A stretch of DNA of 34,078 nt, taken from NCBI GenBank assembly GCA_900128585.1, contig LT642205.1:1-34078 (forward strand), given 5' to 3'. This stretch comes from Stramenopiles sp. TOSAG23-3 (taxonomy: Eukaryota). This document shows positions 5,250-33,976 of this stretch, piece by piece. The notes under the pieces were generated by a model. That model was not told where the DNA came from. It ran no database searches and saw nothing but the letters and a program-made list of their open reading frames with translations. Numbering within the stretch: position 1 is the stretch's first letter; every line of letters begins with the position of its first letter. The translations under genes were made by a program, and so were the position numbers.

Positions 5250-5305
5250 AAAACAAGAAAATTGGCTGTTATTTAAGTATGATAATTATATTTAGCTTCC
5301 TCATA
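5250..5305 (+). repeat. Dispersed 3'-spacer element, full-length copy
   Basis: AAAACAAGAAAATTGGCTGTTATTTAAGTA...TTTAGCTTCCTCATA; first 30 bp match 25697-25726. Confidence 0.9.
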
Positions 5306-5486
5306 ATATTTTTAAAACTTTAAAATTCCAGAAAAAAATAACTCTCATTAACCCTTACGATTCAACTTGGCTTGATAAAATCCCTTCGGAGGATCCCCCC
5401 CTCCCCACCAAATTCAGGTCCCGTTTTCAAAACTTTACATGGTCCACCGACGAACGGCTTCAGAAAAATAGCGCCGTCCCAGGGGA

Positions 5487-6776
5487 TTAATTGTACACCA
5501 TGTACTTTGGTGTTGCACTGAACTTTTTGTAACCTTTGATAACCTTGTTCACGGAGTCTAGAAAATCTTTCTCACTCACGGACTTTCGTCTACCACGGAT
5601 GGCATACATTCCCGCTTCGGTGCAAACGGAGCGCAGCTCGGCCCCCGTCGTGTTCGGGCACAGCCGTGCGATCAATTCATACCGAATGTCACGGTCGCAG
5701 CTCATGCTTTTCGCATGGATCCTCAAAATTTGCGCGCGGCCTTCCAGGTCGGGCAGACCGAATTCTACTTTACGATCGATACGCCCCGGACGAACTAACG
5801 CAGGGTCCAGGGTGTCCGGTCGGTTGGTGGCCATCAAAACTTTAACATTTCCACGCGCGTCGAAACCGTCCAACTCGGTCACGATTTGAAGCATGGTGCG
5901 CTGCACTTCCCCGTCGCCTTCTCCGCCACGTGAGCCGCCGATGGCGTCGACCTCGTCGAAGAAGATGATGCAGGCCTTCTTTTGGCGGGCCATCTGGAAC
6001 AGCTCTCGGACCATTCGCGCCCCCTCACCGACGTACTTCTGTACCAATTCACTACCAATGACACGAATAAAGCAGGCGTCCGTCCTGTTGGCCACCGCCC
6101 GCGCAGACAACGTTTTCCCAGTCCCCGGGGGGCCGTACAACATCACGCCTTTCGGCGGGTCAATACCGAGGGCAACGAAGCGCTCTGGGTGAAGCAATGG
6201 GATTTCCACAACTTCCCGGAGCTGCTGGATCCCTTCCTTGGCCCCGCCGACGTCGTCGTACGTGACATCCGGTTTCTCCTCCACCGTCATCATGGTAACG
6301 GAGGGGTCAATCTTGGGTGGCAAGGGGATCTGGATAGCGTACTTCGTGCGGTCGACGCCGACGCGCATACCCTCCTCTACGTCCGTGGGTGCAACCTTTT
6401 CGCCCAGTCCGACGACAAACTTTGCAATCTGCTTCACGTTAATCATGTACTTTGCATCCTCCGTCTCGGCATCAATGATCTTCGTGCACCGCGCCACCTG
6501 GAGCGGCTGCTCCTCTTGCATCATTTGCTTGTCCGAAACAAGGTCCCAGGTCGACGGGAGGGACAGTCCCGTGTCGCTTTCCTTGACACCGCAGAGCTCC
6601 TTGATGCTTTTGTGGATCTTTTCGGTGGAGTCTTTCAGCTCTTTAAGGCGGCGACTGTACGGCCCTTGCCCATACGTCTGCAGGAGGGCGATATCCCCCG
6701 CGTCCAAGACCGTGACGTCCTCGTCGTCGTCCTCCTGCTTGGACGCCTTCGCTTTCGCTTCCCAATCCTCGGCCAT
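5487..6776 (-). CDS. RPT1: 26S proteasome AAA-ATPase regulatory subunit 7 (Rpt1/PSMC2)
   Basis: [23 protein letters not shown], Walker A GPPGTGKT, pore loop [10 protein letters not shown], Walker [32 protein letters not shown], and the Rpt1-type C-terminus [11 protein letters not shown]. Confidence 0.97.
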
Positions 6777-7147
6777 ATTCCTTTACGATTTGTTCTCACT
6801 TTCTTCTTTTAAAATACCAGGAAATATGAAAATCTCCTATGCCTTTTTTCTCTCTCTTCCAAACTGTGCTTTTGATTGAAGGTAGAAAAATTATCTATGT
6901 TCATACGCTGCACACCTTTCCCTTCGATTATTTTTGTTCTTCCGGTGACTCTGTTCGTCTTTTTTGAATTAGCTTCTCTCCCAAGTTTGATAGTAGTACC
7001 CTTATCCCTTGTATTATTATCGTGTAGTATCCTACGACTATTTTTTATTTATTAATAAAAAATATTACACAACGCACAGGACACAGGACACAGGTCGGTG
7101 GTACATTATTCTTCTATCGATCAATCATCAATCAATCAAATAATCAA

Positions 7148-7232
7148 AAAGGAAGGAAGGAAGAAAAGGAAGGAAGGAAGGAAGGAAGAAAAGGAAGGAA
7201 GGAAGAAAAGGAGGAAGGAAGAAAAGGAAAAG
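7148..7232. repeat. Purine-only (GAAG/GAAA) low-complexity tract
   Basis: About 85 bp of only A and G, largely (GGAA)n. Confidence 0.9.
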
Positions 7233-7614
7233 AGGATACAATGAAACAGTACAGCAGTAGTATCAATTTTAATATTATTTTTAAAATTCAATATAATAAA
7301 GAAGAAGAAGGAATTTAAAACTAAAACTGATACAGTATTAATAATCATCTACAGTGTACGAACTACAGTATAAAAAGTCGTCTAGATAAAATAGAACAGA
7401 ACGACTCTAGCATGGAATCCATATTTAGTCTAAGAAGGAATTTAAGAAGGAATTTATGAAGAAAGAAGAAGGAATTTCATTCTTTTTAATGTACTTGTAA
7501 TTGATATAGTTTAATATATATTTCCTATTTATTATATTTCTTCCAAAATTAAAATTAAAAACAAAACCTGGGTATTTATTTATTACTAACTACCGGTTCC
7601 GTACTTTAGCACCA

Positions 7615-7631
7615 GTAGTGTCCGGCCTATC
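7615..7631 (+). repeat. 17-bp motif GTAGTGTCCGGCCTATC, copy 1
   Basis: Identical to 10282-10298. Confidence 0.8.
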
Positions 7632-8630
7632 AAGAAGCAATCGACCGAGGAGAAAATCATCATTTTTTTTTCAAATTTTTTTTCTTCATTTTTTGGTCGT
7701 TATAAATTGTGTCATCAATTAAGTATATTTAATTCGTATACATTTTTATTATTCCTATCAATAAATTCACTATGTAATGTATTTAATCCATCCCTTTCTG
7801 TGTCCAGTACGTATTTGTTCTATTTTTTTCTTCTTCTTGCAGTGGCTTAGCTATAGTATGAATACATAGGAAACGGTCATAGTCTAGTATATATTAAGTA
7901 TAGTCCTATTAAAATATCAAAGTCACGCACAGAGAGCTCTCTGTCATCAATAGCAACACACACACACACAGTATGTAAATAAAAAGTATTGTAAAAAGGG
8001 ATTTTAATAGGTTGTCTTTGTACTTGTTTTTTATACGATAATATTCCATATTATTAGATCCAGTTTATTGATTGAGATACATTATTATATAGGTATTTTC
8101 TTCCTAGACTATTAGAATCAAATTTGTTTTTCATCGCATTTTCAAAATAAATATTGAATTACATTACACAGCATTCTGCCGTTGTGGTTTTTGCTCTTTT
8201 TGTTTTGCACTACTCGCAGCTCAAAAGAATCAATCATGCTGTGAACCTGTTTATCTTACCTTTTTAAAAGAAATTTTGTTACTACGAAAAAACAAAAAGA
8301 AGAAGTGTCGTCGGTCTATACCCATCATCATTTTTTAATGTTATTTCTATGTATTATTATCATCATCGCCTTATTAATAATAATTAATAAAAAATAATAA
8401 TAATAGAAAGTGCGAGAAAGAAAAAGAAGACGAAGAAAAAAGGAAGAAGTGCTTCATACCGGTAGTATTTTCAAAATAATACATATAGAGAACCAAAAAG
8501 AGATTTGTACTAACAGATTTTAAAGTGTGAAAAGAAACACTACGGTTATTCGCGCACCATATCGTAGTGATTCTTTACTGTTTCGGACAACGTTATTTTA
8601 AAACACACAACACACACAAAAAAGTCTGAA

Positions 8631-10109: not shown

Positions 10110-10281
10110 TCGCATGAATTCAATACTCGCATCTTTCACTCAGAAGAAGGTAGAGAAGAGGTGACGGCGCGGAGCCCCACCATGGATGAATGGAATGAAT
10201 ATAAGTTAATAATCCCACTTTTCACGATTAATTCTTTTGTACAGTACCGTACCTGGTACGCACCACCAGGGAAAAAAACTG

Positions 10282-10298
10282 GTAGTGTCCGGCCTATC
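10282..10298 (+). repeat. 17-bp motif GTAGTGTCCGGCCTATC, copy 2
   Basis: Identical to 7615-7631. Confidence 0.8.
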
Positions 10299-10568
10299 TA
10301 TCTATCTCCCCGTACCTGTACCTATTCCCACTCCCACACAGCCACCAGCTCAACAAAAAAAAAATATTTATATTATAATATCGATCTGTGATTTTGTTTA
10401 CGTAGAATCCCCGTAAATATTGTTGTGGGGCAAAATATTAATTTGTCCTTTTTGACCAATCGGAAGTCACTCCCAGAAGTAAAAGCGAAGACCAGGACAA
10501 GTTAGTTAAATAGGAAATTGCGGACAGTGCCCGCAAAGTAAACACGCCTTGAACGGTCGTAGAATCTG

Positions 10569-12989
10569 ATGAACTTGGCCGCAGCAGCAGGTTCACCAAG
10601 TGCTTGCATTCGTGCTTGTTGTGACAGATATCTGGAGGTCGTTCGGAATGGCAGCAGCGATTCTTATTTTGATGTTATCGTCTTGACTGCCACCGATGAA
10701 CGGCAAAAACTTCTGTACGAGAATTTTGTTCGTCAGCGTGTAGGGCTGCGACAGATACCAAAATCGACGAAAGTTCTAGTTATCGCGGATCCACCCCCCG
10801 TGGGTCACAGAGTTGGAAACGGGGGGGCTGTTCTGAACTGCCTTCGCGTATTGAAAGCGCACAGTTTGGACTGGACAGAAAAACGTATTTTTCTAGTTTT
10901 ATCTGGTGGTTACAGCAAGCGTTCCCCAAATTTGGCCGCTGCAGGGAAAGCGTTTGCTCCGATCCCATACGATTTGCCTTTGGGGTGCCCTGTGCCCACC
11001 GTTTTTGACTTAAAGTTGGCTTTGTTTGCTGCGTACGGAAAGAAAAGTAGCAGCCCGGCCGGTATTTTGGTGGCGGCAGGGGATATCTACGACGTCATGG
11101 ATGGACGTAACTTTGCTCTATCCTCAACGGGCATAACTGCGCTCGCCCACTTTGACTCATGCGAGTATGGATCCAATCATGGAGTATTTGAAACGTCGAC
11201 AGAGCCTGCAAGTAGCGCCAGTGGGCACTTGAAAAGGGTAAGTCGCTACCATCAAAAAGAGAAAAAACAAGTTTTGCAACAGATTGCCAATGAAGACCAC
11301 CGGGTTCTAACGGACGGCGATTTTTTTATGGCAAGTGACGTCTGCGAAGCGTTGTATGAAGCAACGGCCTCGTACGATCTGCCTTTGCCGGAGGGCGAGC
11401 TCTGTTGCTGGACACATTTTTTCGATGCCTGCACACCCGCTAGCAATAAAAACAACCGTGGCGATATTGAAGGGTTATTCAAGGCGCTTGAAAAATTTGA
11501 GCTGTTTGCACTGGATGTGTCGTCCGACCCATCTCACTTTTTCTCACACGTTGGCACGTTACCGGAATACTTATCCTTATTCACGGGGATGGGGAAAAAA
11601 TTGCTGGGGTCTATTCTGAGAGGGGAAACGGTGTGCCCACCAACCTCTCTTGTAGAATATAGCAATCTCTTCGACTGCACAATTGGCGACCATGCAATAG
11701 TCAGTGGGGTGGTCGCTTCCGGGCATCATTTCCCGGAAGCCACAGTGACACTAGGGTTACATTTCAACAAAGACGGCAGGGAAGAGTATGCCCTTTTCCA
11801 GTACCCATTAAAAGGGGACATGAAGGCCGTGTTTGCCACCAAAAGTGCCATTGACAACCCTATTACATTGGCAGATGCGCTTGAATTCAAATCAGTTCAA
11901 CCAACGCTTGCTAGTTTCTCTGTGGCATTTGACAGCAAACGAATTATCTTGGGAGCGGCAAAGCAAGTTACTCAGAAGCTTCCCGGTCTGGGGGGGAAGA
12001 GCTGGGGTGAAAGTTGCTCGGCAGAAATCAATCTGCCAGTGAGGCTTATTCTTGCAGGCGGCTGGAGTGATACACCACCAATGGCGTTGGTCCATGGTGG
12101 ATCGGTCTTCAACCTGGCGGTAAAGGTGAATGGGGAACTACCACTACGTATTTGTGTGGAGAGCTCAGACTCTTGGTATTTTGAAAGTGACGGCAAATCG
12201 TCCCTCAACATGGAAATGGAGGAGAATGATCCATGCGCACTCATCAAAACTTGCTTGAAAGTTTTAGGGCCGAATTTTACTGCGCGTCCTCTGAAGATTA
12301 TTACACGCAGCAGTCTGCCAAATGGAAGTGGCCTTGGGACGTCCAGTATATTAATGCTGGGCGTCTTCCGAGCTGTACTTCAGGTGTATGGTCTGTCCAT
12401 TTCCCTTGAGGAGGAAAGCGACCTGGTGTTAGCGACGGAACAGGCGCTTGGAAGCGGAGGTGGGTGGCAAGATCAAATTGGAGGAGGGACCTCTGGAGCA
12501 AAGTTTGTGTCGGGAAACTCGGGAGGGAATCTTCAAGTCGTCCCCATTAAAATCTCGCCGAGTGTGCGGTTCTTGTGTTTGAACTCACAAATTAGGCGAC
12601 GGGCCAAAGTGGTGCTAGACAAAGTGGTCGAAGGATACAAAGAAGGCCGCAATGTTGATATCTTTGCGACGGCTTTGCCAGCGAACGCACGGAGAATGAA
12701 AGAGGCTTTCGAGCACAACAATTTGGAGGCAGCCGGCACAGAGCTGCAAACATACCTCTCCTTGTGCAGTGCCTTGGCCCCTAATTTTATGCCCCAGGAG
12801 TTGGAACCAATAATGGCTTTTTGCAAGAATTACTGTTATGGCGAGGGGGTCAATTTAATGGGGGCCGGTGCAGGGGGGTTTATCGTTGGTATTTTGAAAA
12901 AAGACTTTGATCTAGAAATTGCCAAAAAAATTGCCAATGATGTTGGGGTCGACGTTCAACTAAATCAATTAAGCATTTTTGCTGAATAA
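10569..12989 (+). CDS. FKGP: Bifunctional L-fucokinase / fucose-1-phosphate guanylyltransferase (GDP-fucose salvage)
   Basis: N-terminal FDVIVLTA, DPPPVGHRVGNGGA, SGGYSKRSP..GKAF and NHGVF (pyrophosphorylase-like). C-terminal GHMP kinase motifs LAGGWSDTPP, PNGSGLGTSS, GGGWQDQIGG, GAGAGGF. Confidence 0.9.
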   Translation: MNLAAAAGSPSACIRACCDRYLEVVRNGSSDSYFDVIVLTATDERQKLLYENFVRQRVGLRQIPKSTKVLVIADPPPVGHRVGNGGAVLNCLRVLKAHSLDWTEKRIFLVLSGGYSKRSPNLAAAGKAFAPIPYDLPLGCPVPTVFDLKLALFAAYGKKSSSPAGILVAAGDIYDVMDGRNFALSSTGITALAHFDSCEYGSNHGVFETSTEPASSASGHLKRVSRYHQKEKKQVLQQIANEDHRVLTDGDFFMASDVCEALYEATASYDLPLPEGELCCWTHFFDACTPASNKNNRGDIEGLFKALEKFELFALDVSSDPSHFFSHVGTLPEYLSLFTGMGKKLLGSILRGETVCPPTSLVEYSNLFDCTIGDHAIVSGVVASGHHFPEATVTLGLHFNKDGREEYALFQYPLKGDMKAVFATKSAIDNPITLADALEFKSVQPTLASFSVAFDSKRIILGAAKQVTQKLPGLGGKSWGESCSAEINLPVRLILAGGWSDTPPMALVHGGSVFNLAVKVNGELPLRICVESSDSWYFESDGKSSLNMEMEENDPCALIKTCLKVLGPNFTARPLKIITRSSLPNGSGLGTSSILMLGVFRAVLQVYGLSISLEEESDLVLATEQALGSGGGWQDQIGGGTSGAKFVSGNSGGNLQVVPIKISPSVRFLCLNSQIRRRAKVVLDKVVEGYKEGRNVDIFATALPANARRMKEAFEHNNLEAAGTELQTYLSLCSALAPNFMPQELEPIMAFCKNYCYGEGVNLMGAGAGGFIVGILKKDFDLEIAKKIANDVGVDVQLNQLSIFAE

Positions 12990-13302
12990 ATAATGTTTTT
13001 GTAATTATTATGTTCTCTAGAATATCATTATTATTCTCTATCAAAACAAAACACAAAACGGAAAAAAAGAACAGTCTGAGAGGAGGGAAGGACGGACCTT
13101 TTTTATTTTAAATAATAAGAATTAGAAGAAGAAATAGGTCTAATTTTAATAAAATTGTTTTTTTTGCATTTACACAGGAGGTTTGAAGAAACAAACAGCA
13201 AAGAGAAATAAGTTTATCCCTGTGGGAAACGGATACAATTTCTTGCAGAAAGAAACAAAGTGAAATTAAAAAATCCATTTTAGACATTTGATTTCATAAA
13301 CG

Positions 13303-14222: not shown

Positions 14223-17008
14223 CTACAGTATTGCAACCCCTCTGGTAGCCAAAGGCAACGACTTTTCAAGAACTAAAACATGCCGGTTTGGGTCGATGTT
14301 CCACATGTGTGAACCAAATCCCAAAAGCTCGTTTCTGTTGTTAAACAATAATGAACGGACGCCTACATTGGCTTTGGGTCCCACGATGATTGCGTCTACG
14401 TGGAACTGGCGGTTGGCCCATTTCATACAAAAAAGGCCGACCTCCTCAACCCAAAAGTAAAAGATCGTTCCTCCCCATGGCCCTCCCTCTAAGGGAGGCG
14501 AGGCGAGTGCGGTCACGTGCGTTTTGTGTGTCTCTGCGACAACTTCGCATGTTCCCGATTTTATATCAATGCATACGATGCAATCGGAATACAGGGCGTC
14601 GTTTGCAGCCATGACCCCATACAGGGCCTCTCCCTTCTCCAACCACATGCCAAACGACAGCGAAGTAATCACCACGGTGTCGACCGTATACTTTGAGTCC
14701 TTCAGGGTCAATTTTGCTAGATGAAGGTAGGTCCCGTCGTTGGGGTTTATTTTGATCAAGGAACCATTCAAAATACCAAAGCACTGCTTGCCGGTTGACG
14801 CGCAGATAGTCCTGAGCCCAGGGATTGGTGAACCGACATGTTCCAGATTATCACTTCGAACGTTGTACGCATACAATTGGCCCGGAACAGTGCTCAAAGT
14901 TCCACCAGAAATGCTTCCCCTGTGGCGCCCCGATCCTAGCAAAAAAAGCGTGTCCGAGCGGCCAGCGGTCCAATCGTTAGTGGAAAAATCGTGGAACGTG
15001 TCGGCATACGTCGTAGAGTCATGCGCCGTCGATCCCATTACACCAGAGCCTGGACCCTCTTGCGAAATCAGGGCGCCAATGTTGGTGTTCCGCCTCTGCA
15101 TTCTGTTTCGCACCATACTGTCCCGCCTTGAGTATTGCCGCACGTCGACCCCTTCTGTTCTCAACGGAACGGCGGAAGAATTATGCACCGTGTCCGCGTT
15201 GCTGCTGCAGACGGACGAAGTCTCGCTAGATCCCTCCGCGTCGACGTTTCTGGGGTGGGCGTAGGCGTGAACGTTAGAACTAGCGCCCCCCGGAAAAAAA
15301 TGGGCGTCAAAATCGTCTGCGCGTGGCGGGCTAAAAGACGATGCCCTGCCACCAAGTGCTAATTGCTGCTGCGCCATGCGCTCGACCACTGCCCCCAATG
15401 CTCGCTGTTGATCAAGGCGATCGCGCTCCAATTGGTACCGCTGGATGTCCATTTGAGCAAAATAGTAATGCTGCATCCATTGCCATGCGTACGCCTCCGC
15501 CTGCAGTCGGCGCTCACGCTCCGCCAACACGAACTGCCACGGATCTCGCCCATTGCGCAAGTTGCCTGTTCCGGGCGGAGCTTGTCCCAAATGATTCGTG
15601 GTATTTTCAAAAACGGGCGTACGAGCGGTTCGAAGGGGACTGGTCTGGGGAACCCCGGGGGGGGCAGCGACTTCTTTCGGTGGGGACGGGGGGGGGGGGG
15701 CGGCGGCAGGGGAACTTCTTCGACTTGAATCGGCCGGGGATTTTGTGCCATGCTTTCCCTCTCCCAGTTCGTGTGGGCACTGTGGTGGTGCCGGCGACGG
15801 TGGTGGTGCCGGCGATGGTGGCGACGGCGCCGTGCCGGCCTCAGTTCAACGGGATCGTGGTTGCCATGAACGTCCAGGTCTCCCTTCGTTTCTTCCGTCC
15901 TCTCTTTTGACCCGGGAGAGGATTGCCGTAATTTAAGGTTCGTTATATAATCGTCGTCTTGAAACATGGAATTCCCCGACTGTGGGGTTTTGTGGATAGT
16001 CGCCGCGCCCCTTGGATTCAACGGACGTTCCGACCGTCTGTCCACGTCTTGTTTTGGGCTGCCTTCGCCAAAGTTTGGCGTGCCGAACGATATCAAACTG
16101 TCCCCGGCAACGCCGTACAGTTGGCCGTCCTGGTTAAATTTCAACGAACTCAACCGTCGCTTCGTTCCCTTTCCTATGCGCGACATTATGGTCTCTAATT
16201 TGTCCCGTTTTACTCTAACAGATTCGATCGCGTTGTTCCCAAACCAGTGTACCCTATGTAACCCGATCGAACTGGACCAAAACAAAAATGCAACGTCTTT
16301 CCGGGGGCCTAAAGCCCTGTGGGGGGATGCCAAAGCTTCGACATCGTGAACGCCGGAAGCAAGTATCGGCCGAACCCCAAACCCTCCAGATTCTTCTATT
16401 TTGCAAATGCTATCGGTTTTCCACAAAGGGTACTTTTCATTATGCCCAATAACCCCGTACAGCAAACACTTCCCATCCTCCATGCAAGTGGAGTAAGTAA
16501 GCGCCTTAATTGCGAAATCAGTAGTCTTCAAATCAAAGGACAGTCTGTTGCGGCCAAGGTAATGGGACGGTTCGTTCCTGTCCAAGACAACCAAGACACT
16601 AACACTAACCTCTCCACGGGTTTGAACCTCAACGCCAACAAAGTGGCCGTCGGACGGTCGGATGGTGATGCAGGACAAAATTCGCCTGCTCTTTCCGACG
16701 CATTTCCATTCGTTTCCACCCAAACAAACATGAATCCCGCAGAAATCGTCCACCTGCACCATCGTCGGTGCACCCCCGTCCCGGTCCTCCGCACTCGAGA
16801 AAGACTCCTCCTCGGGCAAGGCATCACCAAAAAAGTCAAACCCATTTTCCTCCATATCCAACCACTCTTCTAAACTAACCCAATGGGTTGATCCGTCCGA
16901 CTTAAAATTTGCTGCGAACGGTATATCGCCATCTTCGATTTTATCTTTCAAGATCACCGTTGAATACGGACCTTTGGTTCTACCCCCTGGAAGCCGCACG
17001 TGCCACAT
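14223..17008 (-). CDS. GYF_2-like domain protein with two homologous beta-rich (propeller-like) domains; one gene split by a frameshift
   Basis: N-terminal WHVRLPGGRTKGPYS...W (GYF_2/DUF4339-like). Both ORFs carry a related module (LYGVIG..DSICKI..VEALASP..FLFW..IGL..LSSLKFN vs LYGVMA..DCIVCI..VTALASP..FYFW..VGL..VRSLLFN). The downstream frame is open back to TGA at 15848-15846, so both frames span the G13 run at 15688-15700. Adding one base gives about 928 aa. Confidence 0.75.
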
Positions 17009-17056: not shown

Positions 17057-17063
<7 letters not shown>

Positions 17064-17096: not shown

Positions 17097-17100
<4 letters not shown>

Positions 17101-18023: not shown

Positions 18024-21000
18024 ATGGGCGCTTGTAAAAGGCAGGCGTCGGTGCCTTGCGGGTCGCTCCTCCTCTTCGTACTAGCGGCGGTCGGTTCTTG
18101 CGTTAAATTGGTGTCTGGAATAAATGATGTAAATAATATTCGCTTTGTAATTGCTCCTTTGGGGACAAACGGGGTCTCTCACAGTACTTCGTGTGGGCAC
18201 TACGGCATGGACCCAGCCGAGCCTGGAAACGGTGTGTTGGAATGGAACGAAACTTTGCTGGCGAGGGTAGCGGCCAACATGTCCTACACTTCCATTGGAA
18301 AGGTAGGTTGTTGCGCACGGTCTGCTTGGTGCGACAGGGATACGCGCGAATGTTTTTCTACAGGATTCGGCTCGGGGGGGTATGAAAATTTAGGGTGGAA
18401 AGGCCCTGTGGCAAACATGGCGAACACTCGCCTGGGCCTGAAAAGTGTTGCCCCGGTGTATATGTGCGTTCCGAAACCAACACCGTTGGTGGGGAACGGT
18501 AGTGCGCCGCTGCCGCCGTTGCGGGTAGACGTTGCCCGCGTGATAAATAGTGGCGCGCGCGTGGAGATTTTGGGTAGGAATTTTGGCAAGGACCCATCTG
18601 TGATCAAGATTTTTACGGGAGACCATCGGTGCACGGACATTCAAATATGCAGCTCTGTGTGCCAGACCTGTTCGTCCGACGACGACTGCGGGTACGACGA
18701 GGAGTGCCTGAAGCTGAGTGGGTCTCGCGGGGTTTGCTTGAAGCCTTGTAAGTTTACTGCGTCTGGTCTTGACAAGCAATGCCCATGCGAGACGGAATGC
18801 CGAAGGCTGTTCACGGACGGAAGGTACAAGAGGTTCTGCATGAACAAAAACGTTTACACGATCGCTGATATTTGCTCCAAGCCTGTAGACTCGCGTTTGA
18901 CCGGACAGGTTGATTCGAAAGTCTCCTGTGCTGTGCACTCCTTGCATCGTGTATGCCCGTCCAATGCCCCATTTTCGTTGGCCCCAGGCTTAGACAGTAT
19001 GCTGAGCAATGTGTCGATTTCTATTGACGGTGTTTGGGCCAACGCCGATGGCTCGAATGTCCTGACGATGACAGACTGCGGCGTGGATGCCGATTGTGAC
19101 GACAACGATCCGTGCACGGTGGACAGCTGCACCGTCTCGTCCGGGGGAGAGAAATGTTGCGAGCACAATGCTTCACAGTTTTGCCAAGTAGGAAGTATTC
19201 TGCCCCCGTCTCAGCGCGAGTTATCTTCGGACTTCTACGTGATGGTTGATTCGAACAGAGACGACCCGTCGGTACCGACAAAGGAGTTGTTTGGTAGCAA
19301 CGCTGCGCCACCGGATGCAGGTGCAGCGCTTGAAGCCAACGGGTTTAAACGATTGTCCGCCTCGGATGTGGACGACAGCCCGCTGGAAGAAGTGGAGATG
19401 AGTTTTGACTTTCCCTATCTTTTGGGGTACCAGTCGTTTCAAAAAATCTACCCAAATCCAAACGGGGCAATACAATTTCAAAGTACGTCCCCGTGCGGTT
19501 CATCGTTTTCATCATACACTTGCGGTTTGTCGAACGCGTATTACAATTTGCTTGCTCCTTTAGTAACGGATTTCAATCCAAAATTCACTAGGCACGCGCA
19601 AATTCTTGCGAAAACAGAAGCGACGAGGACGGATGTTGTATTTCTCAACCTCCCAGTGTATAGGGCTGGGGGGTACGTACCAAAAGCACCGCATTATACG
19701 TTTATGGCAAGTTTATACAAAGACGGGACCGTGCAATTTTTTTACTTGGATGTGACGCTCCCCGTCGAGCACACCCCGCAAATGCTAGGAATGCGAGGTT
19801 TGCATTTGCACGGGAATGATATTTTGTTGAATGGGATTGGGGGTGCAGACAGTATTCGGACCGGTGCGGTGGTTACCTTCTGTCCAACGGCCAACTTTGC
19901 TTGCATGGACACGGTGTGCGGGGCGTCTGGCACCAGAATAAGATTTTCGTTATTCAGACCATTGAGCTGTGGAAATGGGGATTTGATCAACACTGCAGCT
20001 CTGCAGTGCGACTTCGAGGGCTGGAAGTCAACAGCAACATACGCCAGCGATGGGGGAAACAATCATTGGGTCGAGTGCAGCGTTCCAAGCGGTACAAACA
20101 ACGCTAACGCAACCGCTGCCCCGAATACGACCAACGCCACGGGTACTGTCGCAACGCCCTTTGGAAACGAACGATTGCCAAATGAAACGTATCTATCCGT
20201 CTCTCTAGAAACAACTGATGGCGTGAAAATCAATTTCCATGGGGCCCGGAAAAGCTTAAACGGCAGTCTCAGTGCGCACCCGCTTGTCTTTAAAGTAGAC
20301 AACCGTGCAGGAAGCAACTCCCAGTGTTCTGGTATGCCCGTGCCGCAGTGCAACTCCTGTCAAATTGATGGGCCGGAAGGAGAGGGGAAAGATTGTAGTG
20401 GGACCTGTTTTGGAGGTGCCATTGAAGACGCCTGCGGCGCCTGTACCGGAGGGAGCACAAATGTAGAAGTTGACCAGGCGCTTGATTGCGCTGGAGTGTG
20501 TCATGGCACAGCGGAAATAGACGCTTGCGGAACATGTGCCGGGGGCTCGACGGGGAAAGTTCCAGTACAATCGGCATCCAAGTGCGTGACGTACTGTGCG
20601 CCTGGCGTTGCCCTAGACGATTGCGGGGTATGTGGGGGCAATAATAGACTGAAAGACTGCGATGGGGTTTGCTATGGATCAAACTTCGCGTGCCGAGATG
20701 GCAATGATGGAAAGGGGTCGACAAAGGGTTCAGGAAATGGCAACTCCGACGATGTCACCGAAGAGGAGCAGAGGCGAGACACCTACATGATCGCTGCCAC
20801 TGTTATTATATTGTCAGGATTGTTATTTTATAACTGCGTTCGGAGCTGGAGGAGATTTGCAGAAGTGGGCCAGGCGCAAGAAGTGGCTCAAAGAAATAGG
20901 CCGCAGCGTATTGAAGCCGATGTTCTGGCTGCAATGCCCACAACCACGTATTGTAGCGATGGTCCTGAACTCCAGTTTGGGGGAACCATGTGCGCCATTT

Positions 21001-21347
21001 GTATTTGTGATTATGAAAACGAAGATATCCTGCGAAATCTTCCTTGTGGGCACCACTTTCACCAAGAGTGCATCGATAGGTGGTTTGGAATGAATAGACT
21101 CTGCCCGGTGTGCAAAGCTGATGCTTCAGGGGAGGCACCTGCTTCTGAAGAACGCGCCGCAGTGACCATCGAAATGGCCCCTAGGACAAATCGGGTGTCG
21201 CCACGGCCGCCTCCACCACCACCACCACCACGGAATTTCCATCCTCGAACCGTGCCGCCCCCGCCGCCCTCGCGGCCCACGGAAGCGCAAACTGCTGACA
21301 ATGGTCGGTACTTTGCGGGTATTAGGCGTGCAAGCCGTCATGTATAA
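18024..21347 (+). CDS. Type I membrane protein with large Cys-rich ectodomain and cytosolic RING-H2 (putative receptor-like E3 ubiquitin ligase)
   Basis: Signal-like LLLFVLAAVG; IPT/TIG-like SGARVEILGRNFG; DCDDNDPCTVDSC; NIDO/PLXDC-like FDFPY..IYPNPNG..LAPLVTDFNP..FMASLYKDGTVQFFY; DCxGxCxG..DxCGxC repeats; TM YMIAATVIILSGLLFY; RING-H2 CAICICDY..LPCGHHFHQECIDRW..CPVCK; Pro-rich tail. Confidence 0.9.
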   Translation: MGACKRQASVPCGSLLLFVLAAVGSCVKLVSGINDVNNIRFVIAPLGTNGVSHSTSCGHYGMDPAEPGNGVLEWNETLLARVAANMSYTSIGKVGCCARSAWCDRDTRECFSTGFGSGGYENLGWKGPVANMANTRLGLKSVAPVYMCVPKPTPLVGNGSAPLPPLRVDVARVINSGARVEILGRNFGKDPSVIKIFTGDHRCTDIQICSSVCQTCSSDDDCGYDEECLKLSGSRGVCLKPCKFTASGLDKQCPCETECRRLFTDGRYKRFCMNKNVYTIADICSKPVDSRLTGQVDSKVSCAVHSLHRVCPSNAPFSLAPGLDSMLSNVSISIDGVWANADGSNVLTMTDCGVDADCDDNDPCTVDSCTVSSGGEKCCEHNASQFCQVGSILPPSQRELSSDFYVMVDSNRDDPSVPTKELFGSNAAPPDAGAALEANGFKRLSASDVDDSPLEEVEMSFDFPYLLGYQSFQKIYPNPNGAIQFQSTSPCGSSFSSYTCGLSNAYYNLLAPLVTDFNPKFTRHAQILAKTEATRTDVVFLNLPVYRAGGYVPKAPHYTFMASLYKDGTVQFFYLDVTLPVEHTPQMLGMRGLHLHGNDILLNGIGGADSIRTGAVVTFCPTANFACMDTVCGASGTRIRFSLFRPLSCGNGDLINTAALQCDFEGWKSTATYASDGGNNHWVECSVPSGTNNANATAAPNTTNATGTVATPFGNERLPNETYLSVSLETTDGVKINFHGARKSLNGSLSAHPLVFKVDNRAGSNSQCSGMPVPQCNSCQIDGPEGEGKDCSGTCFGGAIEDACGACTGGSTNVEVDQALDCAGVCHGTAEIDACGTCAGGSTGKVPVQSASKCVTYCAPGVALDDCGVCGGNNRLKDCDGVCYGSNFACRDGNDGKGSTKGSGNGNSDDVTEEEQRRDTYMIAATVIILSGLLFYNCVRSWRRFAEVGQAQEVAQRNRPQRIEADVLAAMPTTTYCSDGPELQFGGTMCAICICDYENEDILRNLPCGHHFHQECIDRWFGMNRLCPVCKADASGEAPASEERAAVTIEMAPRTNRVSPRPPPPPPPPRNFHPRTVPPPPPSRPTEAQTADNGRYFAGIRRASRHV

Positions 21348-21487
21348 AAATATTTTTAAATTTCTACACTACGAAATCTTACTTTGCTACTTTTGAGGTA
21401 ATTTAAAAAATTTAAATGAAAAGTAAAAGTTCTTAAGTTACCGTTAATAAAGAAGATCAGTAAAGTTTAATTACTTTAATTCAATTT

Positions 21488-21608
21488 CCGATTCATGCAT
21501 CATTGGGGTACAGTTTAATATGAAAATGATTAGTCAAGATTAAGTGACAAGGAAAAAATAACAGCCAATTTTCTTGTTTTTTTTAAGTGACAAGGATATA
21601 TTGTTTCC
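21488..21608 (+). repeat. Second dispersed repeat family, copy 1 (interrupted by a 29-bp insert and a 14-bp duplication)
   Basis: CCGATTCA...GTAC...AATGATTAGTCAAGATTAAGTGACAAGGA[insert]TATATTGTTTC is collinear with 23761-23835 (CCGATTCA...GTAC...AATGATAGTCAAGACTAAAAATGACAAGGGTATATTTTGTTTC). Confidence 0.7.
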
Positions 21609-21652
21609 TTGTATGAGCTGTTATTATATAAAATAACAGCCAATTTTTCTTG
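21554..21652 (-). repeat. Two reverse-orientation core copies of the dispersed 3'-spacer element
   Basis: AAATAACAGCCAATTTTCTTGTTTT at 21556-21580 and AAATAACAGCCAATTTTTCTTG at 21631-21652. A partial opposite-orientation GCTGTTATT at 21617-21625 makes a hairpin with the second copy. Confidence 0.88.
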
Positions 21653-22034
21653 GAATCACACACAAGTAGAGATCAATTACTCGCAGCACATTAATTTTAA
21701 TTACTAACCCTAGCCCTAATCCTACCTGTGGACGAAATGATTCATTTCAGTGAGTTGTTGTTTTTGTCCGTTCGGTACTAATCCATATTTATGCTATGTA
21801 ATGTAAATTCTGTTTTCCCCCACTTCTTTTTTATCATTACGAAAATTAGAACTGGTGCATACAACAAACAAAAATGGAACCCCCATTGATATAGATAAAC
21901 GATTTGATCATAAACAATGGACACCCGCACATTTTTCAATGCTGGTGCAGATGTACCTCTACGTTCGGTTTTGCTGGAATTTCGTTCGAAGCAATTAATC
22001 ACTGGGAAGCCATGCCATTTAGAAGTACGCAACG

Positions 22035-23565: not shown

Positions 23566-24017
23566 TAAATAACAGCCATTATTCTGTTTTTAAGAATATA
23601 ATAAATAAAAACAAAAAAATGGCAGTTGTTTAAAGTAATTAAAATTTAGCTTCCTCATAGCCTCTCTAATACCGAAACTACTCAGCATTGTCGTAAATAA
23701 AAGCCCCTCCCGACACCTCAACCCACAAATGACAATTCTTTGACTGGTTTACAAGACAGGCCGATTCAGATCATGAATGGAGTACGTCAGGGAATGATAG
23801 TCAAGACTAAAAATGACAAGGGTATATTTTGTTTCAGTAAAATCACAGGAGCACAGATACGTTCGCAGTACAATAAACAATGTACTCAAAAGAAACGTAA
23901 ACCTTTCATGGACAAAAGGAGCAGATTCATTTTCGCGGTACATGAGGAAGATTCTCTCTTATTTGTAATTACTTTTTGTACCTAGTACTTAAATAACAGC
24001 CAAATTGTTTTGTTTTT
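23566..24017. repeat. Cluster of three copies of the dispersed element; 23607-24017 is MITE-like (inverted copies at both ends)
   Basis: Reverse copy at 23566-23591. Forward copy at 23607-23659, including TTTAGCTTCCTCATA. Reverse copy at 23986-24017, preceded by ATGAGGAAG at 23942-23950. The interior holds the second repeat family (23761-23835). Confidence 0.75.
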
Positions 24018-25343: not shown

Positions 25344-25695
25344 ACTTTAACCGTATGCCCCGCGGCCACGGTCCCCGAACGAAACTCTTTCAAACTATGG
25401 TTTTGTTGTATCTGAAGAGAACGTGCAAAATTAGCAGCAATTGAATAAACTAGTGTATAATTAATAGATTGTCTGAAATAACAGCCACCATTATTATTAT
25501 ATTATTATCAATATCTATATTGGATTGGATTAATAAAACCGCCGCCGAAGCCATTCTGCCGCTGTTGTGCCATCATCATCACAAATTTACGATAAAATTG
25601 TACTTATTTACTGTACCGACTCTATTATTATTTTAAATTAGACAACACAGAATTGGGCACGACTCGACGTGGTGACCTCTCACACGTAAATTAAT

Positions 25696-25843
25696 AAAAA
25701 CAAGAAAATTGGCTGTTATTTAAGTAATTAAATTTAGCTTCGTCGTACCCTTATATTTTTTATTAATTTTAGAGTCTTAAAACATACTATTATATAATTT
25801 TTTATTAATTTAGTTCATAAATAACCGCCAGTATTTTGTTTTT
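25696..25843. repeat. Inverted pair of the dispersed element directly downstream of the FGAM synthase stop
   Basis: Forward full copy 25696-25747 (AAAAACAAGAAAATTGGCTGTTATTTAAGTAATTAAATTTAGCTTCGTCGTA); degenerate reverse copy 25818-25843 (TAAATAACCGCCAGTATTTTGTTTTT). A further 12-bp core AAATAACAGCCA lies at 25476-25487. Confidence 0.8.
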
Positions 25844-25846
25844 AAT

Positions 25847-28800
25847 TTAGTTACCTCCATCGCACCACTCGCGAACGTTTTGAAACATCTTCAGCCACGG
25901 TCCTACTCCATTGGATTTGGCTTTCATTTCAGGGGGCATGAATGGCCACTGCCACGCATTGATGCATCGTTCCGGGTGTGGCATCATTGCCAAATGTCTT
26001 CCGTCTGGAGAGCACAGAGAAGTAATCCCAGCTTCGGATCCATTCGGGTTGAATGGGTATGACATTGTAGGCATGCCAGCGTCATCAACATATCGAAGAG
26101 GGACCACATTTTCAATTTTTACACTTTTGGCAACGTCACGGGTTGGAAAAAAAACTTTCCCTTCCCCATGCGCTACCCATACCCCGAGAACAGAACCCAC
26201 CATATCTTTGAACCAAATACCAGATGCTTGACTTTCACATATTTTTACGGTACTGAACCGGCTCTCAAACCGACCCGAATCGTTGTGAAGAAACCTGCAA
26301 TTTTCCCCCGCGACAGTGGGGACCCACCCCAGCAATGCCATAAATTGGCATCCATTACAAATGCCAAGCGAAAATGTGTCGGTTCTGTTTCGAAAGTCCG
26401 TGAATTTCTCTAACAACTCTTCGTTAAACTTAACAGTACCCGCCCAACCCTTTGCAGAATCAAGAACGTCCCCATAACTGAAGCCGCCCACGAAGACGAT
26501 TCCACGAAACTGGCTCAGATCAACCTTGTTGCTGAGCAAATCTCGCATATGAACGTCCCATGGCTCAAACCCCGCGGCAAAAAAGGCACTTGACATCTCA
26601 CGATCGCCATTGTGTCGAAATTTTTCCCTCACTGGTCCACGAAGGCGTGAATGTCAGACGAAAAGGTGGGCAGAGTCGGGCTTTTAACCCGTCTTTCTCT
26701 TGTGCAACGCATTTCGGGTCAGCCTGGCGTTTGTCCAACTCAAAACTTGTGGATTCCCAAACATCTCTTAGATCCGGTGTGTTGCTTGAAAAGACGGCGG
26801 AGCCTGAGAAAGAAACACTTAGCTCCTGACTCACTGTGGATTTGCCGATGTGGTAGCACGGAATGTTCGCCGCGAGAAATTTGTCCATGGTGTCGTTCAA
26901 ATTTTCGGCCGCGACTTCCAGAACAAACCCTAGCTCTTCGCTGAAGAGGAATCGAAGGATGGATTCCTTTTCTGGGCTTGCAACAAGTTCCGTTGGAAAG
27001 TCGACCCTTAGCCCGCAATTTCCTGCAAATGCCATTTCGAATAGCGTGGTCAGCAGACCGCCATCACTACGATCATGCCCCGCGCTTATGAGGCCAGCAC
27101 CGATCATTTCTTGGACAATGCCGAATGCCCTGGCAAGACTTTCTGGGTCCTCCATGTCAGGACAAGATTCCCCAAGCTGATTCAGCGTTTGAGCTAAAGC
27201 TGACCCCCCGATGCGGTTTTTTCCCTGGCCCAAGTCCACGAAAAGGATTTCTCCAGACACGCCCCCTCCGTTAATGTTGTTCCCGGGCTTCCCCGATGGA
27301 AGCTTAAAGTCCGGGGTCACTGTCAACGTGACGTCTGGGCATGTGCAGTAGCAAGACAAGACAAACGTTCCTGGCGATTTCACCGTTTCTGTGCCAACCT
27401 TTGCGGCCATAGACAAACTATCTTTACCCCCGTCAATCGAAATACCTAGCCTAGACATGCAATCTTCAATAGCCTCGCACGCTTCGTACATATTGGCTGC
27501 TTCTCCGGGAAGTTTGGCGGCCCACATCCAGTTCCCAGACCCTTTGACGTCACTCAAACACGTCACTTTAGCCCACACCAAGTTCAACAGCGCTTCCCCA
27601 ATGCTCATACGCACACCTGCAGCATTGGACAGGAGCCCCTTGATCGGTTGCTCTCCGACAGAGGTTGCGATTCCAGTGTACGTGCCAGTAGCTTTGGACT
27701 TGAAGTGGGATTGTGCCAAGACTGCGACATCGGCAAGAGGGGTGTGCAGCGGCCCAACACACTGCTGCTGTGCAACAAGGCCAGTGACGCTCCTGTCCAC
27801 CTTTGTGGTCAAGAACCTCTTTGATCCGACCGACAAGAGTCGAAGGACCCGGTTGACGGCTTCTTTCACCGCGTTATCGGTGGACTTCGTGGCGCCGAGG
27901 GCAGACATCTCAAGGGGCATCAACGTTTTTGGAGACGTCGAATCGACGAAAGTTTTCTGCGGCAATGAGCCCAAGACTTGGTCCAAGTCAACATCCACTG
28001 GGTTAGTGCCGTTCCAAGAATCATGAAGTACGACCCTTCCATCCCCTGTTACAACCCCAACAACAGAGAACGGGCAATTTTCACGGTTGCCAATCTCTTC
28101 GAACTTTTTCAACGATTCGGGCCTGATTAACATTGCATTGTTTTCCTGGTACTCGCTGCCCCATATTTCAAGAACCGACAGCGACTTGTCCCCAATTAAA
28201 AGATCGCGAATTTGCAGCACGCAACCGGCCGGCTCTGCGATCTCTTTCAAGACATTGCTGTTTCCACCGGCGCCTTGGTCGTGGATGGAAACGATCGGGT
28301 TTTCTTTTCCCAACTCAATACAGGCACGCACAACACGGTTTACTTTGTTGGCCATCTCCGCGTCACCCCTCTGGACGGCGTCGAAGTCAAGCTTCAGATC
28401 CTTCTCATCTTGGACTCGACTACTAGCCGCGCCCCCTCCCATACCAATACGGTAACAGGGCCCACCGATTTTCACAATCAGCATACCTTTGGCCGGTTCC
28501 TCTTTCTTCAAGTGCAAATCATCCAGCTGTCCAATCCCAGCCGTGAACATGATCGGTTTGACCCATTCCCTTCGATCTCCTGCGGGGGAACGAAGGCCAA
28601 ACGAGCGGGTAAACCCGGTCACGACCGGCTCTCCAAACTTATTTCCGTAGTCGGAAGCCCCGTTGCTTGCTTCAATCTCAATATCGAGAGGCCTTGCAAG
28701 GTTTCCAGGGTACTGGAACGAACTGTTCGACTTTTCCCACGGCAACTCGTACCCAGGTATGTTCAAATTTCCTACGCAGTACCCTGCAGTTCCAGCAATG

Positions 28801-30978: not shown

Positions 30979-32142
30979 ATGGCGAGTGCAACTGTTGGGA
31001 AACCGCACTCGTATAAGAAGTTGCGGAAGCGCCGGGAAAAAAATGTGACAAAAGACCGCATAAGGCTTGAGAAGTATGCAAGTGCGGCAATGACGCTGAA
31101 CGATGGTGTGGCAAGAACCCGTTGTGCCGCTCCTATGGACCGCCTTGCCGCCTACGCCGCGGTGTCCGGTTTCCAATTTCTGAAAAGCAAACTCCTTCGA
31201 GAATATCCCCAATATTGTGCCAATAATTCAAAGCTTGGAGTGGAAAACGATAAAAAATTGGTAAAATTCTTTTCGCAGATATCTCTGTTCGACGTGAAAG
31301 AGGCAGAGGTTTCGATGGCAGCAGACGCTTACGTGTTTGATAAGTTTGAGTCCCGGGCCGAAAGCATGTTTTTGTTTTTGTGTTACGCGCTTGTTGACAC
31401 AGACCGGCGCGAAGCGATCAAGGTTGCAGCCCCCAAGTTTGTCAACTTTACGTCAAAAGCAATGGCTCTGAAAACGCAGAGTTACGAAGAAAATTTTTAC
31501 GACAAAAAATCCATCAAAGTTGCTTCGGTCGGTGGTGCCTGCGGGAACGATTTGTTTGGCGCAATTCTGTTTCTCTCTTCCTTCGCTCCAAATCTACGTG
31601 CGATCCAGGCCTGCTCGTTTGATTTTAGCATGGCATGGCAAAAGCCTTGCCACCTGATCAATGGCATTGTTCAATCACCTGAGGGGGCAAGATCGTTACG
31701 TAGTATTTCCAAAGATCTCACGCGCCTCTTTATTCCAGAACAAGAAGTTAAAGCTTCAATAGAAGCGTGCGAAAAGCGAATCAGTTTGGACTTCGCGCAA
31801 TGCAATTTAAAAATGAAAGTGTGCGGGGAAGTCAATGAACGTTTACTTAATTGTGCAGAGACCTTTGGTATGTTCCTCTTTTCGTATGTTGTGTATGAGA
31901 GCAATGCGTGCAAGTATGAGCTGCTACCAGAACTGCTGAGGCGTAGCAAACCGTCCAGTATCTTCATTTTCTTGGATTTGCACCGACAGACTATAGATGA
32001 GATTTCCCAACTTATTTCGGGGTTAAGTCCCTGCAAGAAGGCTAATGAAGCAGTGTTCGGATCAAATGGTTTCGAGATTATCCGGTGTCTCTCCTCAAGT
32101 GTCTACCCTTTTAAAGGCTTAATAGCGTATAAAACAGGGTAA
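30979..32142 (+). CDS. Putative class I SAM-dependent methyltransferase-like protein
   Basis: First ATG at 30979. IKVASVGGACGNDL (motif I-like), SFDFS..W, MFLFSYVVYE and IFIFLD follow the order of a Rossmann MTase core. Substrate unknown. Confidence 0.65.
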   Translation: MASATVGKPHSYKKLRKRREKNVTKDRIRLEKYASAAMTLNDGVARTRCAAPMDRLAAYAAVSGFQFLKSKLLREYPQYCANNSKLGVENDKKLVKFFSQISLFDVKEAEVSMAADAYVFDKFESRAESMFLFLCYALVDTDRREAIKVAAPKFVNFTSKAMALKTQSYEENFYDKKSIKVASVGGACGNDLFGAILFLSSFAPNLRAIQACSFDFSMAWQKPCHLINGIVQSPEGARSLRSISKDLTRLFIPEQEVKASIEACEKRISLDFAQCNLKMKVCGEVNERLLNCAETFGMFLFSYVVYESNACKYELLPELLRRSKPSSIFIFLDLHRQTIDEISQLISGLSPCKKANEAVFGSNGFEIIRCLSSSVYPFKGLIAYKTG

Positions 32143-32215
32143 GGTGCAAAATGATTCGAGTTTTTTTTGACGACCGATTATATTTTATATTATTATAATT
32201 TAATTATTACTTAAA

Positions 32216-32229
32216 NNNNNNNNNNNNNN
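32216..32229. other. Assembly gap (14 N)
   Basis: Run of N in the sequence. Confidence 1.
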
Positions 32230-32555
32230 ATTTGGATATCTTGAGTTGGTAAGGAGGTATTATATATAGGTATAATACCAGGTATAAAACCTGGTATTGT
32301 ACTACTACAACAACAAGACACGACAATTATTATTATATTGTGCACAACGTCACAGCATAGCGGCATTATTAAAAAAATAAGAATTATTCTTCAACAACAA
32401 TCCACCGGGACGTGGTCCACCTCTTCTTCGCACGAGCAAGTTTTCTCGCGATGGAACTGAACGAAAGCGATTAAGGCGGCAAAGTATTTCTGAAATATTT
32501 TTTTTCTCTAAGTTTTGCTTGTTAGGGCGTTTCTGCCAACCGATTGATTTCAAAC

Positions 32556-33729
32556 ATGATGCAGGCCGTTCAATGCGTTAGGTATGCTTCGGCCGCCCGG
32601 GATGCTGTTGAAATTCGGCAAGTTCCTAGCCTTAAGCACAAGCGCCCTCGGAAAGGGATGGTTTTGGTTGAAGTTCTTGCGTGCGGTGTCGATTTTGTGC
32701 AAACATTGCTTATGCAAAATAAATATCAAATGAAGTTGCCGTTACCGTTTACATTGGGCGGGGAAGCAACGGGAGTGGTCATAGCGATCGGCCCTCAGGT
32801 TAGAGATATAAATGTCGGAGATTTGGTAAGTACACGATGCACGACCAATACACTTCTCACTAACACCACACACGCGTTAAGGCGCAGAAGTATAAATCAC
32901 TAACTCTCAATTTTTTTATTCGAAACAGGTTACTGGTGGTGGTTTCGGTTGTTTTACGGAATATTTAGAGCTCTCGGCAAATGGATTGGTCAAATTAGAC
33001 GGGCAACATAATTCAAATGCTTCAGCGACTGACCCAGCGAACGTACCGTCCCTCTATTCCTACCTGACGTCCCTGCACGCTTTAAAGTACAGGGCAAATC
33101 TCCAGAAGGGAGAAACGTTGCTCGTCCTGGGCGCCAGTGGGGGTGTTGGGTCTACAGCGATTCAAATCGGAAAGAATCTGGGGGCAACGATCATCGCTGC
33201 TGCTAGCACGGAAGAAAAATGCGAAACATGCAAGCGCTTAGGTGCGGATTATACGATCAATTACGATAAGGAAAATTTAAAACTAAGAGTGAGGGAAATA
33301 ACCAAACAAAAGAACGGCGTAAACGTTGTATTCGATCCAGTCGGCGATCGTTATTGTGATCCTGCAGTGAGATCGTTGGCGTGGCATGGACGGTACGTTG
33401 TCATTGGGTTTGCGGCGGGGACGATTCCGAGGGTTGCGGTTAACCTTTTACTGTTGAAGGAAGCGTCTATTTTAGGATCTGCGCTACGCGAGAGTGGAAT
33501 GCACGACCCAACTGGGTCGAAACGAGAACGCGAGGAGCTTCTTCAGATGTTCCATGACGGAAAGATTGTACCTTTTGTATCCACCGTTTTACCTTTAGAA
33601 AAAGCTGCAGATGCATTGACATTATTTCAAGATAGAAAAGTGCGGGGTAAAGTCGTTTTGGTCACCAGAGCATACGAAGAAAAGTATGGAAGGCCGTGGA
33701 AAGGCATAGTGAGGAGGGGTAAACTTTGA
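32556..33729 (+). CDS. NADPH:quinone oxidoreductase / zeta-crystallin-like MDR family protein; exons 32556-32825 and 32929-33729
   Basis: GroES-like N-terminal part (VLVEVLACGVDF, PLPFTLGGEATGVV) joins in frame across the intron (NVGDL|VTGGGFG) to the Rossmann part LVLGASGGVG, FDPVG, VIGFAAG, GKVVL. No catalytic Zn Cys/His set seen. Confidence 0.92.
32826..32928 (+). other. Spliceosomal GT-AG intron (103 nt, phase 0)
   Basis: 5' GTAAGT, branch-point CACTAAC at 32898-32904, T-tract, 3' ACAG. Removal restores the reading frame. Confidence 0.92.
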
Positions 33730-33948
33730 TTAAGTTAAGAGAGATTTACACCGGCAAAATTTATCACACACACCGTAAATAAAAGAAGAGGGGGGCACCG
33801 GTACGGCACCTGTACCAGGAACGAACCGGCGGTCCAAGGTTTGCGAGTGTTTCCCCTATTTAATTTAATTTAAAAGATCGAATTTTTTAAATTAATTTTG
33901 AGCATACTACAAACAGTATACTAATGACATTCCATTCGGCTTAACATT

Positions 33949-33976
33949 AAAAACAAGAAAATTGGCTGCTATTTAA
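33949..33976 (+). repeat. Dispersed 3'-spacer element, core copy
   Basis: AAAAACAAGAAAATTGGCTGCTATTTAA, one mismatch to the 25696 copy. Confidence 0.88.

Follow-up and report, generated by a model that had tools for sequence, protein, structure and literature searches.

A short motif dispersed behind genes of a marine stramenopile is probably the 3′ tip of a CRE-like LINE family

We analysed a 34,078-nt stretch of DNA from Stramenopiles sp. TOSAG23-3 (assembly GCA_900128585.1, contig LT642205.1, positions 1 to 34,078 of the forward strand; hereafter "the window") and a short motif which is repeated in the spacers between its genes. The window, a eukaryotic contig, is dense in genes and poor in introns, its spacers are A+T-rich, and the sequencing runs which contain it are marine. 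The motif is very probably the conserved 3′ tip of a CRE-like family of retrotransposons without long terminal repeats (non-LTR retrotransposons, or long interspersed nuclear elements, LINEs) with a restriction-like endonuclease (RLE). The tip comes after a single long open reading frame (ORF) which holds a reverse transcriptase (RT), a CCHC knuckle and endonuclease motifs, and its copies are found mostly between convergent genes. We describe it as a new family within a known kind of element, one whose niche is unusual and whose truncation is extreme.

Copies of the motif in the window

An earlier note on this DNA, made from the sequence alone, had listed ten copies of the motif, and all ten were found where it had placed them and on the same strands. 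Seven of these match the 12-nt core of the motif exactly, two have one mismatch and one (23607-23659) has two. A 25-column profile, applied with a score of at least 15, picked out nine copies in the window against zero in the reversed window; with a score of 13.1, the core-only copy at 25476 falls short of the threshold. The divergent spacers of the window contain no copy, as had been claimed. The note had also described four copies as lying on the sense strand behind a gene. These four are as described, 36–213 bp past the stop, but they are a selection, as antisense copies (23607, 25476 and 25818) share spacers with them. With respect to the G-alpha gene the copy at 5250 is antisense, as is that at 33949 with respect to its upstream gene.

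Several features had been overlooked. The copy at 23986 is the end of a piece of ~320 bp (23699-24017) which still bears the end of the LINE ORF, extra element pieces lie at 21520-21552 and 21667-21705, and direct repeats of 14 bp (at 21556) and 11 bp (at 25818) flank two of the short copies, which we call stubs. An Rfam scan of the window found no relevant family, the sole match being a chance one to a GT repeat at 17059. Copies of the element fall into at least three subfamilies by their upstream sequence in the 3′ untranslated region (3′UTR), and only the last ~40 nt are common to all. The features in the window, with subfamilies A and B named where they could be assigned, are:

5247..5305, minus strand: 5′-truncated LINE stub of ~56 nt with the tail of subfamily A, located in the convergent spacer between G-alpha and RPT1
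21520..21552, plus strand: part of an older copy, from the beginning of the subfamily B 3′UTR, found by blastn against longer copies; the next stub inserted into this older copy
21540..21553, plus strand: left target-site duplication of stub 21556, 14 bp
21554..21584, plus strand: stub of 29–31 nt with a perfect tail and a long T run, nested in the older copy
21583..21596, plus strand: right target-site duplication of stub 21556, 14 bp, starting within the T run
21631..21652, plus strand: decayed tail in which the older copy probably ends
21667..21705, plus strand: another element piece (subfamily B 3′UTR, by blastn), which lacks the terminal motif
23566..23591, plus strand: diverged stub of 26 nt, 36 bp past the zinc-finger gene
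23603..23663, minus strand: diverged stub of ~57 nt with a subfamily A tail
23699..24017, plus strand: longest copy in the window, ~320 bp and rearranged, with the last codons of the ORF and its stop (23763-23810), 3′UTR and tail
25476..25487, plus strand: 12-nt core only, probably a decayed stub, sub-threshold in the profile
25696..25754, minus strand: stub of 55–59 nt matching the tail of metagenome contig L186 (see below), missing from the X17 contig which bridges the site
25805..25852, plus strand: diverged stub (25818-25843) between 11-bp direct repeats (25805-25815 and 25842-25852)
33949..33976, minus strand: stub of 28 nt, antisense to its upstream gene

The C-terminal codons of the copy at 23699-24017 were read off the sequence and compared with the ORF ends of longer copies.

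The element, its reading frame and its insertion marks

Across the 28.4-Mb genome the exact 25-mer was found at 819 sites (reversed control: 0) and the exact 12-mer core at 1,983 sites (reversed control: 3), so far above the controls that the motif is no chance feature. At 30 loci around exact matches, one flank was unrelated between loci whereas the other ran into shared sequence, the length of which varied. On the opposite strand, the motif is the fixed, T-ending 3′ tip of 5′-truncated elements. We measured 86 copies, comprising those from these first 30 loci, from a motif-blind sample of 200 kb and from the window. Their lengths ranged from 20 to over 240 nt with a median of 40 nt, and 13 were at least 100 nt long. 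A run of five Ts closes the tip in 40 of the 86, and in 72 the next letter is A. Copy number drops steeply from the tail inward: 1,983 cores, 819 25-mers, 15 and 13 exact subfamily 25-mers and 28-mers, respectively, and 6 matches to the RT region. The copies are truncated forms of the LINE itself and not a separate element of fixed length. Many copies (at L017, L030, L058 and other loci) have short re-duplications within the tip, as well as insertions stacked within one spacer, which suggests slippage or repeated priming.

Walking upstream from ever longer copies led into an ORF. Metagenome contig L186 has 1,748 stop-free codons with the stop 88 bp before the motif, and a second contig (L183) has the same layout. 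The window copy at 25696 matches the tail of L186, and pieces from the genome itself tile L186 from base 1313 to 5365. Those from the RT region have 89–98% identity to L186, and 91 and 97% identity at the protein level. Pfam RVT_1 was recognised in 19 of the 22 relatives which were found with the middle part of L186. We built a family profile from L186 and 21 of these 22 relatives, excluding P0155 for its length. Searched against solved structures, the profile matched R2 proteins first (E 4e−45 to 1e−23), followed by LINE-1 ORF2p (3e−20). An AlphaFold model of the RT region (706 aa, pLDDT 75, pTM 0.78) had LINE-1 and R2 structures at ranks 1–14 (E 1.7e−11 to 1.2e−7).

Towards the C-terminus, L186 contains the motifs C-X7-C-X8-H-X3-C-X8-PHN, an E 28 residues further on, QAD, D and K..KY. 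The accessible text of PMC12857005 quotes the RLE consensus for MoTeR, SLACS and CRE as a CCHC knuckle, RHD/N, E, PD and D/E..K. The motifs of L186 come close to this, and we predict from them that an RLE lies downstream of the RT in L186. L186 also has long insertions in its ORF, and its C-terminal tail is acidic and of low complexity. We saw no apurinic endonuclease, integrase or LTRs in L186, whose 5′ end is missing. Pfam searches of the C-terminal pieces of longer copies found nothing informative, and a search of 1.84 billion representative sequences with the endonuclease region returned 140 unnamed relatives, most of them short.

Other retroelements were also found. P0176 (MBT3565203.1) is a near-identical LINE protein of 1,689 aa on a contig of 5.5 kb which NCBI files under a Gammaproteobacteria metagenome-assembled genome; this contig is probably mis-binned eukaryotic sequence. 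The genome itself carries a second LINE family (L209, L210 and L211, on contigs C301, C1928 and C791) with 45–51% protein identity to L186. It also carries LTR elements with long intact ORFs, which we take to be Gypsy-like, and others which we take to be DIRS-like (L097-L103, L064).

Insertion marks were found at a subset of copies. Direct repeats of at least 9 bp flank 17 of the 86 copies, compared to 3.7% in a null of shuffled pairings, and repeats of at least 12 bp flank 6 (null: 1.1%). Their sizes range from 9 to 17 bp, and they include the 14-bp repeats around stub 21556 within an older copy and the 11-bp repeats around stub 25818. Many of the duplications start within the terminal T run, from which it would follow that the nicked strand ends in A residues able to pair with a U-ending RNA. 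An apparently empty orthologous site, a check which the earlier note had put forward, was seen in one contig of run X17, which bridges 25698-25767. It matches 403 bases on the left and 844 on the right, with 16 letters in place of 70; the net loss of 54 is the length of stub 25696. Copy 25696 appears to be polymorphic for presence or absence, in the single case of one contig. Contig joints which link one copy to another were disregarded in this comparison. Two further length differences were seen. X17 record 9 has 29 extra letters, about the size of a stub, over 20800-21582 in the region of the RING gene. A frameshift at 26596-26612 splits PFAS in the window and looks like an assembly error; contigs of runs X18 and X1 carry ~41 extra bases at 26612, a length which would restore the frame.

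The element thus shows the features of RLE-type LINEs for which we tested: a non-LTR RT ORF, endonuclease motifs, fixed 3′ and variable 5′ ends, target duplications of variable size and polymorphism. In the mechanism we propose, the protein would recognise the shared tip on its own RNA, and a nick in A+T-rich DNA would provide an A-ending strand to pair with the U-ending RNA and act as primer for reverse transcription. Synthesis would mostly halt after 20–60 nt, leaving stubs, some of them within older copies. The location of the copies behind genes may be due to purifying selection against insertions into genes and promoters, to an active preference for transcription-end regions, or to both.

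Position relative to genes and explanations for it

We determined the position of copies in a motif-blind sample of 200 kb, made up of the first 40 kb of each of five long contigs. The sample contained 24 convergent, 26 tandem and 22 divergent spacers. Of its 15 copies, 12 were in convergent spacers, 3 in tandem spacers and none in divergent ones, so that the 3′ bias seen by the earlier note in the window also holds in a profile scan beyond it. All 15 lay within 400 bp of a stop, a zone which makes up 34% of the unmasked spacer DNA (P = 8e−8 by copies). Counted by spacers, copies occupied 7 of the 24 convergent, 3 of the 26 tandem and none of the 22 divergent ones (Fisher: P = 0.01 for 7/24 vs 0/22). 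The density of TTTTA-type sites was equal across spacer classes, at 10–12 per kb, and the supply of sequence is therefore no explanation for the location.

The same pattern was found in larger sets. The first 30 distinct exact copies comprised 22 in convergent spacers, 1 in a tandem spacer and 7 for which a gene end was the only neighbour called; none was in a divergent spacer. A further 137 loci, chosen for longer copies, gave 158 copies: 47 convergent, 4 tandem, 56 with only a gene end, 6 with only a gene start and 45 with no gene called on either side. None of the 158 was in a divergent spacer or within an ORF. An earlier and cruder count, which used a crude gene caller and a 16-mer pattern and included the window, had given 9 convergent, 8 tandem and 1 divergent among 18 classified copies; it was replaced by the profile count. 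Relative to the nearest gene, 19 copies were sense and 26 antisense (P = 0.37), a comparison which is confounded by the geometry of the element in convergent spacers. Tandem spacers outside the window are a cleaner measure, and there 7 of 8 copies were sense to the upstream gene, which is too few to decide.

A number of observations weigh against the interpretation given here. In the protein, the endonuclease motif is off consensus, with PHN for RHD/N and a gap of ~55 residues (a long insertion) separating AD from the D that follows. The RT of L186 itself went unrecognised by Pfam, and a PDB search with the single L186 sequence found no match. A search of the genome for Pfam RVT_1 returned 8 matches, none of which ends in the motif and which we take to belong to Gypsy- or DIRS-like elements; one motif was found on a contig with an RVT_1 match, located behind an unrelated downstream gene. 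There is no complete element, as L186 is metagenomic and open at its 5′ end and the assembly holds only pieces of it. Among insertion marks, 69 of the 86 copies have no duplication of at least 9 bp, and the empty site is one contig, from a run of unrecorded type, with at least one probable assembly error of the window nearby. As for position, the genes were called with an intron-blind codon model made for this analysis, and for 6 of the 158 copies a gene start was the only neighbour called. An exact 16-nt core (score 11.6, below the threshold of 15) also occurs in a divergent spacer at about 36700 on contig C5998, and a check by hand found this spacer to be truly divergent. The 3′ bias is strong but not absolute.

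The earlier note had offered two readings of the motif. Its suggestion of a tiny mobile element which targets or is tolerated at 3′ ends was right in substance, and the mechanism it drew on, analogous to bacterial REP sequences and involving a transposase or HUH nuclease with matching termini, was wrong given one fixed and one ragged end, duplications of variable length and continuity into the LINE ORF. Small size, high copy number and head-to-head pairs which resemble inverted repeats (23566/23607) could be taken to indicate a miniature inverted-repeat transposable element (MITE) or a REP-like palindrome mobilised in this way. However, copies have no terminal inverted repeats or palindrome and no fixed length, the duplications are not of one size, copies run directly into the RT ORF, and the inverted pairs, with their different flanks, are most plausibly separate insertions. 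This origin is contradicted by these features and we regard it as barely credible.

The note's other suggestion, a lineage-specific 3′-end processing element, is not supported as the origin of the motif: 40 of the 50 stop-bearing spacers have no copy, both orientations are common and one contig lacks a copy. With copies in just 10 of 50 such spacers, a general 3′-end processing or termination signal is ruled out. A related possibility is that stubs which arose from a retroposon now act within 3′UTRs, in mRNA stability or 3′-end formation, as in Leishmania (PMC2323293, in its accessible text). The closeness of copies to stops and the sense orientation of most tandem-spacer copies would fit this, as would RNA run X2, in which many contigs carry the motif with unrelated flanks and the silent zinc-finger gene has no cover, although this is only a hint. 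The empty spacers, mixed orientations and polymorphic copy 25696 again stand on the other side, together with the near-intact ORFs which the family retains and the folding of the tip, which was no better than that of shuffled sequences (z −0.7 to +1.1, 5 sequences). We consider such domestication improbable.

If the motif is the tip of a LINE, it may still be asked why copies lie behind genes. Active targeting could be the main cause, with the LINE directed towards the places where Pol II transcription units end, perhaps by a small N-terminal SH3-like barrel which reads a chromatin mark or a transcription factor; this is compatible with the LINE identity and concerns location alone. Divergent spacers are the longest (median 936 bp) and hold 39% of TTTTA-type sites, yet have no scored copy in the sample or among the first 30 distinct exact copies, and it is hard to see how every 25-bp insertion would have been purged from them. 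The ~100 N-terminal residues were modelled as a five-stranded SH3-like barrel (residues ~20–100, pLDDT 45–87), and the conservation of this block in three divergent relatives (L186, P0149 and C229, a contig of the genome itself) weakly favours such a preference. The structural neighbours of the barrel include Spindlin-4, TIP60, the RDM15 Tudor domain, BAH, KOW and chromo domains, as well as plasmid TraI and proteases. However, the best match (Z 5.3, a plasmid TraI domain, rmsd 3.0 over 67 aligned residues) is below the level of 8 at which the tool regards a match as meaningful, and neighbours at a Z of 5.3 or less indicate no more than a common arrangement. Foldseek gave no match with E ≤ 0.001, searches for the barrel in Pfam, PDB sequences and the Atlas found no match, and the model was built on three sequences. 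No relatives of the N-terminal block were found among proteins of 99–315 aa, in the Atlas or in viral contigs, although this absence is weak evidence. Furthermore, assembled genomes display only surviving insertions, and selection would be efficient in a large marine population.

Selection and a preference for transcription ends cannot be distinguished from assembled genomes. We lean slightly towards selection alone, while some real preference is quite possible; targeting as the main cause is also conceivable, but on balance we doubt it. The more specific proposal, that the LINE aims at the transcription ends of protein genes, chiefly convergent ones, by a Tudor-, chromo- or KOW-like barrel which binds a chromatin mark or the elongation or termination machinery, seems unlikely. 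If true, aiming at gene ends would differ from known safe-harbour strategies, which use rDNA, tRNA genes, telomeres or promoters. Our literature search, with subscription papers and Repbase outside it, found no account of a barrel in such elements or of confinement to gene 3′ flanks.

Contig C229 (L234, positions 1-1893) has an open frame of 631 aa with an intact-looking ubiquitin (Pfam E 1.7e−25; LRLRGG followed by more glycines). It lies in frame upstream of a region homologous to the N-termini of L186 (E 4e−16) and of the RT-bearing P0149 (E 4e−11), which makes the ubiquitin-bearing frame a relative of the LINE. Host proteases could cut at the ubiquitin of this sister family and free the working protein.

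Annotation of this genome should treat its approximately two thousand stubs as remnants of LINEs and not as regulatory signals. A dispersed, T-tailed LINE whose copies have a median of 40 nt and are held to a third of the spacer DNA offers a clean natural test of targeting versus selection in a compact genome. If targeting is real, it would give retroelements a new means of leaving genes and promoters unharmed, and might be turned into a tool for DNA insertion behind genes. In an uncultured protist, stubs which are polymorphic could also be of use as population markers.

Elsewhere in the window, a fusion of fucose pyrophosphorylase and GHMP kinase was identified by Pfam at 10569-12989. Two overlapping minus-strand ORFs at 14223-17008 had no Pfam matches and are probably parts of a single gene, interrupted by a frameshift or intron near 15360-15700. 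In the first, low-complexity ORF (1-600) there are two direct-repeat pairs, spaced by about 90 and 60 nt.

Comparison with known systems

The family is most like the CRE group (CRE1/2, SLACS, CZAR, Cnl1, MoTeR and FoTeR), with which it shares a single ORF, an RT followed by a CCHC knuckle, the H-N, E, (R/Q)AD and D..K motifs, and many truncated copies (PMC12857005, in its accessible text). According to the accessible part of PMC4640811, the CRE clade is "mostly" target-specific, and the N-terminal parts of related elements are zinc fingers, Ulp1 protease or RNase H. Unlike the CRE group, this family is not tied to spliced-leader genes or telomeres but is found at no fewer than 819 dispersed sites, and no fixed repeated target was seen, as flanks were unrelated at the loci read. 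It also differs in its T-run end, long ORF insertions, N-terminal barrel and acidic, low-complexity C-terminal tail. We presume that the consensus of the 22-sequence alignment resembles the RT motifs of the CRE type.

R2 inserts at one 28S rDNA site and has zinc fingers and a Myb domain at its N-terminus. R2 proteins (PDB 9nl3, 9dou, 8gh6) are the best solved relatives by profile (E 4e−45) and are among the best by fold, and it is by homology to R2 that we infer target-primed reverse transcription for this family. Unlike R2, the family has no fixed rDNA site, and no R2-type N-terminal zinc fingers or Myb domain were seen in the 290 residues available.

EhLINE1 and EhSINE1 of Entamoeba histolytica are similarly non-site-specific and intergenic, lie near genes and have variable target duplications, as described in the accessible text of PMC1635306 and PMC2996970. 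The former proposes that the T-rich 3′ tail of EhLINE1 pairs with an A-rich bottom strand. However, the abundant short form in that system is given there as a SINE (short interspersed nuclear element) of 450–680 bp, whereas here it is a truncated LINE tip of 20–60 nt, and those parts of the account do not describe confinement to gene 3′ flanks.

LmSIDER1/2 of Leishmania also number approximately two thousand and are short remnants of retroposons, most of them gathered behind coding sequences (PMC2323293, in the text accessible). The same text describes SIDERs as extinct, longer and with a shown role in mRNA decay, whereas the family described here has near-intact ORFs and a polymorphic copy.

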